From positions 9,858,001-9,922,000 of the forward strand of contig OZ024746.1 in the NCBI GenBank assembly GCA_964016885.1: a stretch of 64,000 nucleotides of DNA. The letters run 5' to 3'. This DNA is from Eledone cirrhosa. Taxonomy: Eukaryota. The translations under genes and the position numbers were made by a program. Shown one piece after another: positions 483 to 64,000 of the stretch (positions are counted from its first letter, which is position 1; the number at the start of each line of letters is the position of its first letter). Below the pieces are notes generated by a model. It did not search any database, was not told where the DNA came from, and saw only the letters and a list, made by a program, of their open reading frames with translations.

Positions 483-634
483 CCAGAAGAATTGACACAA
501 GCATTGGAATATAGCAATATAGTCTTCAGTTTCCTTTTTGCTGTTGAAATGTTGCTCAAAGTTGCAGCATACGGTCTTTTTGGATACATCAGTGATGGGT
601 TCAATTTATTTGATGGATTCATTGTAGTGTTAAG
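483..634 (+). CDS. Cav3: T-type voltage-gated Ca2+ channel alpha-1 (Cav3), internal exon, domain II S2-S3
   Basis: Acceptor ttttatttgcAG (481-482), donor GTAAGC (635). 152 nt, phase 0 to 2. Translates [50 protein letters not shown](S), typical of Cav3 IIS2/S3. Confidence 0.95.
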
Positions 635-3600
635 GTAAGCTTCTATGTTTTTCCTTAATCATTTCGTTAGAATATTTTTAATAAAAGACATTGCCAGTAA
701 TGGTCAAACTATTTTGAAAACAATAAAGAATTTCGAAGGATTTAGTAAAAATAACTAATTTTTGTATATTTATCAGGTGTTTGGAATGTAACTTAACAAA
801 GAATTGATTGACGAGTTTTAAATAAATATAAATGCTTCAAAATAACAACTCAGTATCAAAGAACCAGGGGCAGTTTCAGGCAGATTGGTATCAAGAGGAT
901 TAAATGTATATAGTGTGTTTGATATATTATTAAATGTTTTTACTCTCTATGCCAAATCATATTAATACATGCACTTTTCTGAATAATGGAACAAGAAATA
1001 AGTCCAATTTAAATTCAAAAGAAAAATCTTTTAGCTCTTTTAATACCAAACTGCCTGAAACTGCTCTTGATTCTAGAATACAAAATTGTTTCCTTTAAAA
1101 TGTTTATATTTATCTAAGAAACTTTAAGCTATGGTTGGGATGATGATAATGATGATGGTGGAGGTAGTAGTGGCAGAGGAATAGCAAGCAGTTGTGAGGA
1201 GGGTCAGTCTTCACACTCTTCCAGTACAGGTATAAAGGGGCACAAAGTTTCTCCTGAGCTATAATGCCTGTTAATTGAGGTGGGTGCCTCCCAAAATGTC
1301 TTTCTCCTCCCAGAGGAGCTGGTGATGGTGGAATAACGATGACAATGAACATGATGATGGTCATGATTGTGACTAACAACTGGTAAAAGTTCACGTTAAG
1401 GAAAGTGACCTTCGAGATGCTGCAGGTTACCAGCATCAGTAAGAGTCAATACAAATGCTAGTATTCATGGCATGAAGAAACAACAATTCTCCTAAAGTCT
1501 CACATTCTCCCTTGATATTTGTCCCTAGTTCAGCCCTGATCAAGCAGGTCTATAATGAAAGACATTCCACCTGTGGCCACTCCATCTAGGACTACTTTAT
1601 CCAGCACATCATTTCTTCTTTTCCATGATAGGAAGATATTATTTGAGGAAGATTTGCGGCTGTTTTCAACTGGTCACATGACCACACCAGTGCCAGATTT
1701 TTACTTAATATTTAAATTTTACAAAGTTTAGGAGTCCCTTGTTAAAAAGTTACACCAGGTCTCACAAAAATTGATAACATATATGCTTTTTAATTATTTT
1801 TTTAGCTCCCCTGTAGATTGCGTGGCTCTAAGTTTACATTTGCATAGCCTGTGCCTAAATCTAGTACCAGACTGCTCAGAGGCAACATACTGTTGTTTAC
1901 TAAATATTAGATGTAAGATGTCTACAGAAAGATTGTAACAGAGATTATTTATCTGGGAAAACATTAAAAGTAGACATTAAAAATTGATCAGAAAGAAAGA
2001 TTGATATTTTTTATAGGATGTGAAGAAAATTGATATCAGGTGATGGTTGGTGGCCTATCATCAAGTGAAGTAAACCAATAAAAACCCAAAACAAGACATC
2101 CTAAATCATTAAGAGGTAATAGGGCAGAGTAACAAAAGGCTATCATATCTATAGCAGGCTAAGCCAGAATGTTAAAATAGTCCTAAAAATGATAAGTATC
2201 ATCTGCTGCTGTAGTAGAATCATCACTGTTGTTTATCATATCATCACACCTTCTTCATTTACACTACCACATTCCTCCAAATATTTTCCTCCTTCCCCAC
2301 TCCATCATAATACCACCACTGCCACCACCACTACTACTGCTGTACTCCACACTCTGACCATCACTACTGATATCTTTATCACTGCCAATATTATTATTAT
2401 GAATATTATCAACATCCTACCCTTCCTCTTCCTCCTCTTCATCATTCCCTTACTCATCACCCTCCATCCTCATCCTCATCGTCCTCAGCATCAGCATCCC
2501 CTATTACAACTGCCACCATCATCATAATCAGTAGCATGTTGGATGCCACTACTACTACCATTGTATTATGGCCTTCATTATTAAACTGCAGTCATTACCC
2601 TCACACTCATGTGTTATTAATTCCATTCTTTTTTATATATTCCTCCCTCTCTCAGATTTTAACATCAATATTTGGTCCAGCATCAATTCTCCCCCAACAC
2701 CACCGCCAGCACTACTGTCAACATTTTCTTTAAAAATCAATCTTCAGAAAGTTTCAATAAAAACTCCAGTCAGTGATAGCCAAAAAAAGTTAATTTTTTC
2801 TCCTTTTTTTTATTTCGTCTTTCTTTCTATTAATTTTAAAATCAATCATTTCTTAAGATCAATCTTCTGGCTTTGAAATCAATTTTTGAGTCAATTTCAA
2901 GTTTTACACAAAATTAATTGTTGACTTACAAACTTGTACCTTAAAGAAACCATTTGCCAAAGATACTAATTTTGGAATTTAAAAACCTTGATTCAAATTG
3001 CTTTCAACCATTCTTTATTTTATTGCTGGTACCAGAATAAAATACACTTAGTATACTCTGTAAAGTGGTTAGTGTTAGGGAAAGCATCTAGCCATGGAGA
3101 AATAAAATGTTGAGGACACTCTTTAGTTGTGTCAAAGACATGATAACCTCTTGAGTGCTGGTGACATAATAAAATATACTTAGTACACTCAGTAAAGTCG
3201 TTGGTGATAAGAAGTTGTAGAAACCATGTCAAAGCCAGAACATATATGAGACATGGTTCACAGTCTTCCTGGGCAGACAATAGTTCCTATTAAGTACTGA
3301 CTTGGTCAGTGATCATCCATCCAATTCATGCCAGAATGTTTTATCAGATATTAAATGATAATGATGATGATTGCCTATATAGGTTAAAGCACTGCCCATG
3401 ATATCTATTTTTCTGAGCCTTTGAGATTGACAAGAAAAAGATAGGTAGTTATCCTCAAATGTTTACATCAGAGTGAACTCTGTTAAAGACACTGAAGGAC
3501 CAAATGGTAGTGTTAAAATGGGCAATTTTAATACCATCCAAAAACTCAGAAGGCAAAGAGCCAGAACTATTCTCTTACTCTTACTACAAGGCATGTCATT

Positions 3601-5036: not shown

Positions 5037-5222
5037 CATTATAGAACTTGCGCAAGATGGTGCTGGTGGCCTGTCTGTATTACGTACATTCAGGCTACTG
5101 AGAATTCTCAAGTTGGTACGCTTCCTTCCTGCTCTCCGAAGACAGCTTATTGTCATGTTGAGAACTATGGATAATGTTGCTACTTTCTTTGCACTACTTA
5201 TTTTATTTATGTTTATATTCAG
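5037..5222 (+). CDS. Cav3: Cav3 internal exon, domain II S3 end, S4 voltage sensor, S4-S5 linker and S5
   Basis: Pyrimidine tract plus ctacAG acceptor, donor GTGAGT. 186 nt, phase 2 to 2, in frame with the previous exon. (S)[61 protein letters not shown](S) carries the Cav3 signatures [12 protein letters not shown] and TMDNVATF. Confidence 0.97.
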
Positions 5223-13135: not shown

Positions 13136-15121
13136 GTTAACTGCTAGTTAAGTCATTATATATATATGTATATATATGTGTGTGTTAGCTGCTAGTTAAG
13201 TCATTATATATATGTATATATATGTGTGTGTGTTAGCTGCTAGTTAAGTCATTATATATATGTATATATATGTGTGTTAGCTGCTAGTTAAGTCATTATA
13301 TATATGTATATATATGTGTGTTAGCTGCTAGTTAAGTCATTATATATATGTATATATATGTGTGTTAGCTGCTAGTTAAGTCATTATATATATGTATATA
13401 TATGTGTGTGTTAGCTGCTAGTTAAGTCATTATATATATGTATATATATGTGTGTGTTAGCTGCTAGTTAAGTCATTATATATATATATATGTGTGTGTG
13501 TTAGCTGCTAGTTAAGTCATTATATATATGTATATATATGTGTGTGTTAGCTGCTAGTTAAGTCATTATATATATGTATATATATGTGTGTTAGCTGCTA
13601 GTTAAGTCATTATATATATGTATATATATGTGTGTGTTAGCTGCTAGTTAAGTCATTATATATATGTATATAATGACTTAACTAGCAGCTAACACACATA
13701 TATATACATATATATAATGACTTAACTAGCAGCTAACACACACATATATATACTTATATATAATGACTTAACTAGCAGCTAACACACACATATATATACA
13801 TATATATACATATATATACACATATATATACATATATATATACATATATATATACATATATATACACATATATATACATATATATGTATATAATGACTTA
13901 ACGGTGTGGAAGTCGGACCTTCGTAGAGACCTGAAAATCCGCCTCTTCATTGCTGTAGTGGAGTCTGTGCTGCTGTATGGGTCTGAGACTTGGACACTGA
14001 CCAAGAAACTCACTCAGATGGTGGATGGGTGCTACACGAGAATGCTGAGGATGGCTCTGAACATTAATCAGTATACACTGAGGATGAAAAACTCAGTGCT
14101 GTATGGGAGCATCCCAAAAGTCAGCTCAAAAGTGACACAGAGGAGACTGAGGTTAGCTGGACATGCTCACCGACATCCAGAGTTGACATTGCACTCAGTA
14201 CTCCTTTGGGAGCCCCTACATGGACACACTAGAAGAGGAAGACCAAGGTTAACGTATGTTGATGCCCTAAGGACAGACACTGGTCTGTTGGAGATGCAGG
14301 ACATGGCAGCGATAATGAGGGACAGAGACCGCTGGAGAGAACTCGTCCATGGATCTCGGGAATTTTACCCGCCTTAGATAAAGAGATATATGTATATATA
14401 CGTGTGTTAGCTGCTAGTTAAGTCATTATATATATGTATATATATGTGTGTTAGCTGCTAGTTAAGTCATTATATATATGTATATATATGTGTGTTAGCT
14501 GCTAGTTAAGTCATTATATATGTATATATGTGTGTGTTAGCTGCTAGTTAAGTCATTATATATATGTATATATATGTGTGTGTTAGCTGCTAGTTAAGTC
14601 ATTATATATGTATATATATGTGTGTTAGCTGCTAGTTAAATCATTATATATGTATATATATGTGTGTTAACTGCTAGTTAAGTCATTATATATATGTATA
14701 TATATGTGTGTTAGCTGCTAGTTTAGTCATTATATATATGTATATGTGTGTGTTAGCTGCTAGTTAAGTCATTATATATATGTATATATATGTGTGTTAG
14801 CTGCTAGTTAAGTCATTATATATATGTATATATATGTGTGTTAGCTGCTAGTTAAATCATTATATATGTATATATATGTGTGTTAACTGCTAGTTAAGTC
14901 ATTATATATATGTATATATATGTGTGTTAGCTGCTAGTTTAGTCATTATATATATGTATATGTGTGTGTTAGCTGCTAGTTAAGTCATTATATATATGTA
15001 TATATATGTGTGTTAGCTGCTAGTTAAGTCATTATATATATGTATATATATGTGTGTTAGCTGCTAATTTAGTCATTATATATATGTATATATATGTGTG
15101 TGTTAGCTGCTAGTTTAGTCA
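13136..15121. repeat. minisatellite of about 43 bp (GTTAGCTGCTAGTTAAGTCAT plus a variable TA/TG tract), with an internal inversion and LINE insertion
   Basis: Direct units at about 13136-13670 and 14400-15121. Reverse-complement units at about 13670-13900. Confidence 0.95.
13902..14385 (+). mobile_element. 5'-truncated RTE-clade LINE, 3' end of ORF
   Basis: Open frame 13904-14377: KIRLFIAVVESVLLYGSETWTL...RRLRLAGH...GRPRLTY. GC-richer than its flanks. Confidence 0.88.
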
Positions 15122-23049: not shown

Positions 23050-23621
23050 ATAGACAACCAGACTCCAGGAAATGTAGCTCTCTTTCTCTCTTTAACCCCC
23101 CCCCTTCTCTCTCTCTCTCTCTCTCTCCATATAGACAATCAGGCTCTGGAAAATGAAACATAACCCTCTCTCTCTCTCTCCATATAGATACTCAGGGCTC
23201 TGGAAAACAAGATGTAGCTAACACATTCTATTTTTCTTTTCATCTGCACACTTTTGTAATTTTATTAAGCACTCTAGTTTCTTCAGAATTTTACTAAGAT
23301 ACATAATAATTCTTACAATATAATTTATTACACTGTCTGAGTCTTTATACAAAATCACTGCAACACCATCTTTATAACAGCTGGCCACCGCCTTTATCAA
23401 AGACACATTATGATGTTTCAGTTAATGAGAGATTTTTTTTAAATGTTTAAATTTTGATCAATTTGTTTAGATCTTAGAAATGCTATTGAAATGGAATATT
23501 TAGTCTTGAAATTGGTTAAGATATGGAAAGAACAGGTACAAAGAAACACACACACAAATACTCTCACACTCACACACACACATATATATTTATATATATT
23601 TATATATATTTACATATATAT

Positions 23622-24580
23622 GCAAGCAGCAAACAGCCACAGGAAACAAGTACCACCAATCTCTGGGAGGGCTCTGTAGAGACAGTAGACAGCTTCTGCT
23701 ACCTAGGTGACCGAATTAGCAGTGGAGGTGGATGTTCAGAAAGTACAATAACTAGGGTAAGAACGGGATGGAAGAAGTTCAGGGAACTACTGCCACTGCT
23801 AGCTGCAAAAGGCTTCTCCCTCAGAATGAAAGGCAGACTGTATGATGCGTGTATCCGAACAGCAATGTTGCATGGTAGTGAGACCTGGGCGCTGAAGGTG
23901 GAAGACTTACGTAGATTAGAGAGAAACAAAGCCTGCATGCTCCGATGGATGTGTAATAGTAATATACGCGAACGACAAAGCATAAATGAATTGAGAGAGA
24001 GACTGAGCATAAGAGGAATCAAATGCTGTGTGCAGGAGAGGCGGTTGCGTTGGTATGGATATGTGATGCGTATAAAGGATGACAGCTGCATAAAAGGTGC
24101 AGAGCACTAGAAGTCGATGGAAACCGCGGAGTGGGGAGATCCAAGATGACCTGGGATGAGGTGATAAAAGCCGACCTTACCCAATTACACCTCTCAAAGG
24201 CGATGACACACGACCGTGACCTCTGGCATCACGCAGTAATACACAGTACCCGACCTCCCATGGGTACAAGCTGAAGCATATAGACAATATGCCCCCACAC
24301 CCCCCACTGCAAGGTGGTCGTGGAGGTGCCACGGCAAAAAAGCACCCAGCCCACGCTGTAAAGTGAACGTGTAGGCACCACGAAAAAGCACCCAACACTC
24401 ACTGTAAATGAGGTTGGTGTTAGGAAGGGCATCCAGCTGTAGAAATCAAGCCAAATCAGTTCCCATATGAGCAAGGCATAGTCAGCTGACCAGACACTGC
24501 CCACAACAGGACAACCCATCTAACCCATGCTAGCGTGGAAGAACGGACATAAAATGGTGATGATGATGATGATGAGGATG
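23622..24580 (+). mobile_element. 5'-truncated RTE-clade LINE with composite 3' UTR and (GAT)n tail
   Basis: VDSFCYLGD...KGRLYDACIRTAMLHGSETWAL...RRLRWYGYV. The 3' end is aacccatgctagcgtggaag...gatgatgat. Confidence 0.88.
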
Positions 24581-25041: not shown

Positions 25042-25353
25042 ATAGTATAAAAAAACGAAAAAATCAATGATGCATCTGGACTCGGTTTATTGCGTGTTAC
25101 AATTGTTTCGTCGGCAGGTAGCTCGAGACATGATCACTGTAGGGATCTGGCTGATTCTACAGCTGTAGGTTCCTTCGAACACGGGCAGTTTGTCCATCTG
25201 AACGAACTGCTCATGTCCGAAGGAACCTGCAGCCGTAGAATCAGCCTGATCCCTACAGTGATCATGTCTCGAGCTACCTGCCGACGAAACAATTGTAACA
25301 CGCAATAAACTGAGTCCAGATGCATCGCTGATTTTTTCGTTTTTTTATACTAT
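25042..25353. repeat. long fold-back palindrome (arms about 152 bp, 8-nt loop), Penelope-like remnant
   Basis: The arms are reverse complements, which explains the mirror ORFs 25087-25305 and 25090-25308. Contains GAAA-caattg-UA. Confidence 0.9.
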
Positions 25354-33435: not shown

Positions 33436-33577
33436 CATCCTCGGAATGAACTTATTTGGGTGTAAATTTTGTGGCCAGAAAAGGATAATGTCCACGCAGA
33501 CGTACTCATATACCCACCAAAACTGTAGTCGAAAGAATTTCGACTCCTTACTCTGGTCAATCCTTACTGTGTTTCAG
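33436..33577 (+). CDS. Cav3: Cav3 mutually exclusive exon 12a-type (IIS5-P turret plus descending pore helix), tri-cysteine CxxC...C
   Basis: Acceptor ttctgcttcAG, donor GTATCG. 142 nt, phase 2 to 0. (S)[47 protein letters not shown]. The CxxC...C pattern and RKNFD lysine match protostome exon 12a. Confidence 0.93.
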
Positions 33578-56117: not shown

Positions 56118-56439
56118 TGTTTTAGGCATGTGCTTTTTCGGCGGCAAATTCTGTGAAGGTCATCAGCAGAACTATGAACCCATTAATATCATCAACACTA
56201 CTACTAGTACTACAACTACTCCAATCTCTACCATCACCAACACCACCATCACCAACAACAATAATAGTACCACAACTGTCACAGACATTATTAATTCTAC
56301 TGTTATTACTACTACTACTACTTCTGCTACTATATTCCCACCACTCCAAAAACGGACATCTACAACCAGCAAAATTAGTTGTCACTGCAAAAGAGCTAAT
56401 TTTGATTCCCTTCTTTGGGCGTTTATAACAACTTTTCAG
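56118..56439 (+). CDS. Cav3: Cav3 mutually exclusive exon 12b-type with a long Thr/Asn-rich turret insert
   Basis: Acceptor tttatctccccacctgcatgcAG, donor GTAACC. 322 nt, phase 2 to 0, the same as 12a, with no stop. (S)VLGMCFFGGKFC...[T/S/N-rich]...SCHCKRANFDSLLWAFITTFQ. GGKFC, the terminal CxC and RANFD are 12b hallmarks. Confidence 0.88.
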
Positions 56440-63599: not shown

Positions 63600-64000
63600 T
63601 CATCATCATCATCATCATCACCGTTTTACGTCCGTTCTTCCACGCTAGCATGGGTTAGACGGGTTGTCCTGTTGTGGGCAGTGTCTGGTCGGCTGACCAT
63701 GCCTTGCTCATACAGGAACTGATCTGGCTTGATTTCTACAGCTGGATGCCCTTCCTAACACCAACCTCATTTACAGTGAGTGCTGGGTGCTTTTTCGTGG
63801 CGCCTACACGTCCACTTTACAGTGTGGGCTGGGTGCTTTTTTGCCGTGGCACCTCCACGACCACCTTGCGGTGGGGGGGGGGGGCATATTGTTTATATGC
63901 TTCAGCATGTACCCATGGGAGGTCGGGTACCCTGTATTACTGCGTGACGCCAGAAGTCACGGTCGTGTGTCATTGACTTTGAGAGGTGTAGTTGGGTAAG
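63600..64000 (-). mobile_element. 3' end of an RTE LINE (same family as 23622-24580), running off the window edge
   Basis: Highly similar reverse complement of 24175-24575 with a (CAT)n tail. Confidence 0.88.

Follow-up and report, generated by a model that had tools for sequence, protein, structure and literature searches.

The Cav3 T-type channel gene of Eledone cirrhosa: a long threonine-rich turret exon at the 12b position

In Cav3 T-type channels, the choice between exons 12a and 12b is a rare case of ion selectivity being set from outside the filter, and 12b has so far been described as always 48–55 aa long, with a five-cysteine scaffold. In the window analyzed here, i.e. the whole stretch of 64,000 nt from the genome of E. 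cirrhosa (G000:C6:9858001-9922000), an open exon of 107 codons, with a Thr-rich middle, is found at this position. The locus thus raises the question of whether so long an exon is really part of a Cav3 channel, and how its insert is to be explained.

The exon and its place in the Cav3 gene

The exon lies at 56118..56439 (+; 322 nt, 1 nt plus 107 codons) and, on the basis of its reading frame, alignment and contig junctions, is assigned to the 12b position of domain II, encoding the end of S5, the D2L5 turret and the P1 helix. It is preceded by a polypyrimidine tract and an acceptor ending in GCAG, and followed by the donor GTAACC. Upstream, the window contains a preceding Cav3 exon for domain II S2-S3 (483..635, +, coding limits approximate), the common exon 11, spanning domain II S4 to S5 (5039..5222, +), and the partner exon 12a (33436..33577, +; 142 nt, 47 codons); exon 13 is found 42 kb downstream of the 12b exon, at G000:C6:9956407-9956562. 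An earlier, sequence-only reading had described an open exon with proper splice sites and phase, more than twice as long as its partner (107 vs 47 codons) and located at the 12b position of a Cav3 gene. All of this is borne out: the ends are AG and GT, no stop interrupts the frame from exon 11 through the 12b exon to exon 13, and both flanks are those of a Cav3 exon 12. Since, in addition, contigs join the exon to exon 13, the assignment is far beyond chance. The frame from exon 11 to exon 13 is preserved with either 12a or 12b by itself, both or neither leading to an early stop: from the frame, we infer that the two exons form a mutually exclusive pair.

No third copy of exon 12 was found between exons 11 and 13. 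A genome search with 12a returned five rows, in which the only real matches are the 12a and 12b exons themselves, those on C9, C4 and C1 being rejected as chance, and the 3' end of the 12b exon is single-copy in the genome. A canonical penta-cysteine 12b, which the sequence-only reading had considered as the form possibly expressed instead, was found neither between exons 11 and 13 nor elsewhere in the genome search. The ORF of the 12b exon in the window was not found in the protein collection, and no match at E<=10 was detected among proteins of 190–2000 aa, in a weak search crowded by low complexity. A PDB sequence search with the same exon gave one row, judged to be chance, and a degenerate DNA pattern had no match in metagenome contigs.

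Judged from its sequence, the surrounding gene is an intact Cav3 T-type channel gene. The 30 coding exons mapped (1902 aa) span about 600 kb and contain no stop; the set omits some linker exons and the C-terminal tail. The selectivity filter is EEDD (SLESW, TQEDW, SKDGW and TGDNW in the mapped exons), with the domain II outer Asp, and the D4L6 loop contains four cysteines, DCDASDDCEKNCC, the invertebrate pattern. The closest solved relatives of exons 12a and 13 are human Cav3.1-3.3; the 29 exons other than 12b are 97.5–97.9% identical to the Cav3 models of Octopus bimaculoides, O. vulgaris and O. sinensis, which identifies the source as an octopod, exon 12a sharing 45 out of 47 residues with the Octopus models.

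Some further features of the gene may be mentioned. Exon 12a, at 47 aa, is one residue over the published 38–46 range, and its own sequon (NCS), adjoining the last Cys, is common to the Octopus models. In domain I S2, a Cys is found in ELCDHF (L026:1480-1728; G000:C6 about 9568741-9568989), where nearly all other channels feature Phe; it was found in the present genome and the Octopus models alone (6 of the loops counted), and is a second octopod-specific Cys. Two intronic open frames of the window (13772-14374 and 23520-24107, +) resemble fragments from the C-terminal part of LINE retrotransposon proteins. A dispersed repeat is present in two similar, oppositely oriented copies (24180-24520, -, and 63659-63996, +), which flank exons 12a and 12b, and at 25051-25349 both strands give like translations, which suggests a long, MITE-like inverted repeat.

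Switch residue, cysteines and threonine-rich loop

In the snail LCav3 channel, the outer Asp of domain II is neutralised by Lys1067 when 12a is used, giving a Na+ current, and Ala in 12b leaves the preference for Ca2+; exchanging Lys and Ala takes the Na+/NMDG+ current ratio from about 15 to about 2.3 or back (PMC9694082). In the E. cirrhosa 12b exon, alignment places Ala at this switch position (last Cys +3; 56395..56397, +; K1067/A1078 in PMC9694082), within CKRANFD, as opposed to CSRKNFD in 12a, a CxxC...C exon with its Lys at 33533-33535. The earlier proposal that splicing also switches ion selectivity is plausible on this ground, and a Ca2+-preferring current of the 12b isoform is predicted as likely, by analogy with the snail. 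In the published work, a neutral residue at the switch position is given as a rule for molluscs and nematodes. Insect Cav3 12b loops feature Lys there (CDRKHF); the Lys/Ala rule, therefore, fails to extend to insects.

The first turret Cys (GGKFC; 56152..56154, +) is invariant in the alignment and equivalent to Lymnaea C1054 (numbering of PMC7382465), and the final CxC (CHC; 56380..56388, +) is equivalent to C1073/C1075. Within the penta-cysteine pattern C...CxC...CxC, the outer pair is kept and the middle CxC is absent, while a further Cys is found at the end of S5 (GMCFF; 56131..56133, +), four residues before the Cys which bridges to the voltage sensor in 12a and in vertebrates: both peculiarities had been pointed out previously, and both are found in the alignment. 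The S5 Cys recurs in a relative, P0121, described below, and in none of the 269 other exon-12 starts counted. For the snail 12b turret, bridges have been proposed between C1054 and C1075, between C1064 and C1073, and between one of the middle cysteines and the S1-S2 loop of domain I (PMC7382465). If CHC pairs according to this scheme, its first Cys would be left without its canonical partner. The domain I S1-S2 partner Cys (YRPC) is kept in the gene, although the middle cysteines are lost, and for this reason the tether may be re-routed. Removal of the snail 12b cysteines raises the Na+ ratio no further than to about 3.8, from about 2.3 (PMC7382465), and for the cysteine-less snail mutants, stated jointly, changes of about 50-fold in Zn2+ block and about 10-fold in Ni2+ block are given. 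As the ratio shifts little and metal block strongly, the channel would be expected to work here and to carry mostly Ca2+, its block being altered.

Between GGKFC and CHCKRANFD lies a loop of 75 aa (56155..56379, +), with no cysteine, rich in Thr, Ile, Asn and Ser (26 Thr, 11 Ile, 9 Asn, 8 Ser, with 4 Pro) and with 6 charged residues out of 75. The sequence-only reading had counted about 30 Thr/Ser and five N-x-S/T sequons, two of them overlapping: the translation contains 34 Thr/Ser, and the five sequons are indeed present (56194..56301, +; Asn codons at 56194, 56239, 56260, 56263 and 56293). At the DNA level the loop is a decayed (ACT/ACC/AAC/ATC)n repeat, in which 52 out of 75 codons begin with A and the only periods are 3, 9 and 15 nt. 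Composition shuffles produce 3.8 sequons on average, as compared to the 5 observed (P=0.30). Outside mapped exons, the 664 kb surrounding the gene contain 34 further windows of 40 triplets with the same repeat type, neighboring ones not being independent: 27 of them are stop-free, 6 contain at least three sequons and 3 at least five. Given the P value and the similar texts obtained from non-coding repeats, sequon enrichment was rejected as a mark of selection. The mucin-like text is what a common octopod microsatellite spells in frame, since non-coding repeats read alike. Selection of a glycan brush is not supported so far by the loop sequence; the stalk would probably be glycosylated. The 12b exon is the sole low-complexity expansion among the 30 mapped exons, with a lowest 25-aa entropy of 1.87 bits, as opposed to at least 2.47 in the others.

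A search of the 12b exon against 1.84 billion representatives selected three proteins at E<=0.001, of which one is an ordinary arthropod-type model, one a low-complexity protein matched by chance, and the third P0121. The latter is the ORF of a relative; it reads through the same donor, and its similarity fades about 8 codons into the intron. It shows the same design at about 80 aa: MCFFGGKFCE is identical, and only one difference is found in the last 20 residues. Its loop, of 48 aa, is a purer Thr/Ser run, with one sequon (1.7 expected) and one Cys at +10 from the first, where the canonical middle CxC has its second Cys; CHCARANFDSLLWAFITTFQ follows. The S5 Cys and the Thr-richness are thus common to the two exons, while length, sequons and middle Cys differ; persistence of the sequons among relatives is not supported so far, five being found here and one in P0121. 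The comparison of flanks, cysteines and loops suggests that the insert grew inside the inner loop. Single-sequence AlphaFold models, obtained with no alignment input, show a long hairpin for the insert, in the E. cirrhosa exon as well as in P0121 (pTM 0.34 and 0.26), and no fold match was found at E<=0.001. These models are not relied on, because Thr/Ile runs often draw strands.

All 58 other distinct FGG-type (12b) loops, collected by pattern, are 50–55 aa long, as against 107 aa here; the published range is 48–55 aa (PMC7382465). Most distinct lophotrochozoan 12b loops, 15 out of 19, carry one sequon, in 13 out of 19 between the middle and final CxC, and a glycan site at the loop apex is therefore likely to be ancestral, not new. 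Among the 11 Octopus Cav3 cluster members, exon 12 is covered by seven, every one of which uses 12a. No squid, cuttlefish or Nautilus Cav3 was found among the 120 matches listed. Several public Cav3 models (P0003, P0004, P0024, P0138, P0140, P0144 and others) string 12a and 12b together, and are likely annotation artefacts.

Splicing and origin of the insert

Six sequencing runs matching the exon are listed, and four of them were compared; that none is on record as RNA, and that run X2 yielded no contig, says nothing on expression. In run X6, one 308-nt contig follows a single diagonal from 56157 to the end of the exon, and then continues into exon 13: the repeat, masked at 56182-56336 in the contig overlay, has the exact genomic length (156 = 156), and 23 out of 23 loose letters are those of exon 13. 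This is a single contig of depth 6, near-identical to the genome, whose library type is unrecorded; it comes from another sample of the study of run X3, which has the same organism label, covers both intron flanks and behaves as DNA. The Thr-rich part is thus kept in a spliced form, the X6 contig combining full genomic length with exon 13. A contig of run X1, from a different organism and study (RNA by guess, 90–95% alike, depth 5 over the masked repeat), also joins the 12b exon to exon 13, with 21 out of 22 letters. Its coordinates leave the repeat 22 nt short, which corresponds to an exon of 300 nt, out of frame; the deficit may be an assembly or read error, or a real frameshift or decay. 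On the 5' side, X1 stops 5 letters beyond the acceptor, and the exon 11–12b junction is outside the contig coverage. Contig ends were also considered as a proof of 12a co-expression, and rejected: X1 (24 letters) fits, X6 (25) does not.

The sequence-only reading had admitted that the Thr-rich part might be spliced out, which the full length of X6 contradicts, or that the exon might not be used at all. On the latter point, too, the outcome is in its favor: the junction from 56439 to the next exon, now recognized as exon 13, is seen in the X6 and X1 contigs, though no exon 11–12b junction was seen. Taken as a whole, its observation is confirmed and its interpretation holds in part, three of its four refutation tests being in its favor and the fourth, on frameshifts in relatives, turning on the 22-nt deficit of X1, which is no multiple of 3.

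With about even confidence, we explain the locus as an octopod, mutually exclusive exon at the 12b position, in which a Thr-coding trinucleotide repeat likely expanded in frame by slippage, and which would provide a calcium-preferring isoform bearing a tolerated, probably glycosylated stalk. Splicing would pick either 12a or 12b, messages with both or neither being frameshifted. An outer disulfide, between the first and last turret cysteines, would pin the base of the loop, so that Ala, not Lys, would face the domain II outer-pore Asp and Ca2+ preference would be kept. The repeat may have grown in the inner loop, already bearing one N-glycan site in molluscan 12b, because the tip of this loop faces away from the pore. 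Both the inner disulfide and the tether which normally reaches the voltage sensor of domain I would be lost or re-routed; for the tether, the candidates are the CHC Cys left without its partner and the new Cys of S5, which precedes the bridging Cys of 12a by one helical turn. The resulting channel would partly behave like the snail 12b cysteine-less mutant, mostly carrying Ca2+, with altered Ni2+/Zn2+ block and kinetics. Tolerance is in agreement with the comparison of P0121 and the 12b exon, whose flanks are constrained and whose middle is not; against it, the uniqueness of this low-complexity exon among 30 and the Thr-richness of two lineages also fit selection, and the 300-nt exon of X1 and the seven Octopus models with 12a fit decay or low use. 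A more ambitious version, in which octopods rebuilt the calcium-selective splice form, replacing a cysteine knot with a microsatellite-born, tunable glycan stalk and a re-routed voltage-sensor disulfide, so that one splice choice would set both selectivity and shield, seems to us distinctly doubtful.

Selection for the stalk itself is possible, if doubtful: a long O/N-glycosylated (or beta-hairpin) projection might have been kept for peptide or metal access, surface expression or extracellular contacts, and be switched by splicing. A Thr-rich insert in at least two octopod-type lineages, within the sole low-complexity exon of 30 and at the ancestral sequon site, would fit such a role, as would the hairpin modelled in both species, the O-GalNAc reported on octopus rhodopsin (PMC6272458) and the dependence of pharmacology on pore-loop length in TRPM3 splice forms (PMC9290681). 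However, length (75 vs 48 aa), sequons (5 vs 1) and sequence are not conserved, sequons are not enriched over composition, non-coding repeats read alike, and the models lack both an alignment and a fold match. The loop also has few charges, and mollusc sialylation, according to a review, is trace-level.

It is also conceivable, though in our opinion unlikely, that 12b is a decaying or poison exon, losing its role in octopods under relaxed selection, 12a being the working form and inclusion of 12b frameshifting the message of some species. The frame-breaking deficit of X1 points in this direction, along with the stepwise loss of middle cysteines (one left in P0121, none in E. cirrhosa) and the lack of 12b in all public Octopus models covering the site. 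Yet both the 12b exon and P0121 retain an open frame, good splice sites and near-identical flanks, the junction to exon 13 is found in contigs of two studies, and the depth of X1 across the masked repeat makes an assembly or read error plausible. Moreover, microsatellite-rich exons are easily missed by annotation, which counts against decay. That the long middle is an artefact, either an assembly error or an intron within the exon, could be suspected from low-complexity DNA adjoining long AT repeats and from the masking of the overlay. This is largely refuted, and very improbable: no usable donor-acceptor pair was found inside the exon, the middle has its full genomic length in the spliced contig of X6, and a relative, P0121, features a comparable in-frame insert.

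Comparison with known systems

No description of a long or Thr-rich cephalopod Cav3 turret was found in the literature covered, a scope without Senatore et al. 2014 (JBC 289:11952), the widest species survey, which could mention one. A term search found no cephalopod names in the supplement text of PMC7382465, the gene-tree figure of which, a picture, could hold some. The isoform described here is real, spliced, unannotated and structurally odd, and a channel specialist would not expect it. As a natural, spliced 107-aa form with the switch residue, and without the inner cysteines, it tests to what extent the scaffold is required, and whether a large appendage can be borne by the shortest pore turret. 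The public Octopus models examined miss what is likely to be the calcium-preferring isoform of the T-type channel, a point of importance for the neurophysiology of cephalopods. Should the insert prove neutral, it would remain a clear case of an octopod microsatellite turned into an extracellular channel loop.

Mucin-type PTS domains are extracellular, Thr/Ser-rich regions with Pro-rich peptide tandem repeats and dense O-glycosylation. The E. cirrhosa loop resembles them in being predicted as extracellular and in its Thr/Ser content (34 out of 75), but contains only 4 Pro out of 75 and no peptide tandem unit, is closed at both ends and originates from a trinucleotide repeat. In TRPM3, splicing alters the length of the outer pore loop, and thereby pharmacology, in the alpha1 and alpha2-6 variants (PMC9290681); the family is unrelated, and the abstract of that study mentions no mutually exclusive exons with either a cysteine scaffold or a Thr-rich repeat.

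The closest comparisons are with the snail channel. The LCav3-12b cysteine-to-alanine mutant (PMC7382465) shares the loss of the inner turret cysteines in a 12b background; in contrast, the E. cirrhosa exon occurs in nature, retains both the final CxC and the outer pair, and is longer by about 55 residues. Lymnaea LCav3 exon 12b itself, with its penta-cysteine D2L5 turret, has in common the position after 12a, the phase, the FGG start, the first Cys, the final CxC, the switch Ala and a tri-cysteine, Lys-bearing 12a partner (PMC7382465, PMC9694082). The E. cirrhosa exon differs in its length (107 vs 48–55 aa), in the absence of the middle CxC, and with it of the Cys for which a bridge to the domain I voltage sensor has been proposed, in the new Cys at the end of S5, and in having an uncharged Thr/Ile/Asn loop with five sequons in place of a short, charged one with a single sequon. 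It lies at the 12b position and likely works like 12b, yet departs from both the five-cysteine pattern and the length range, and may be best described as a non-canonical 12b exon.
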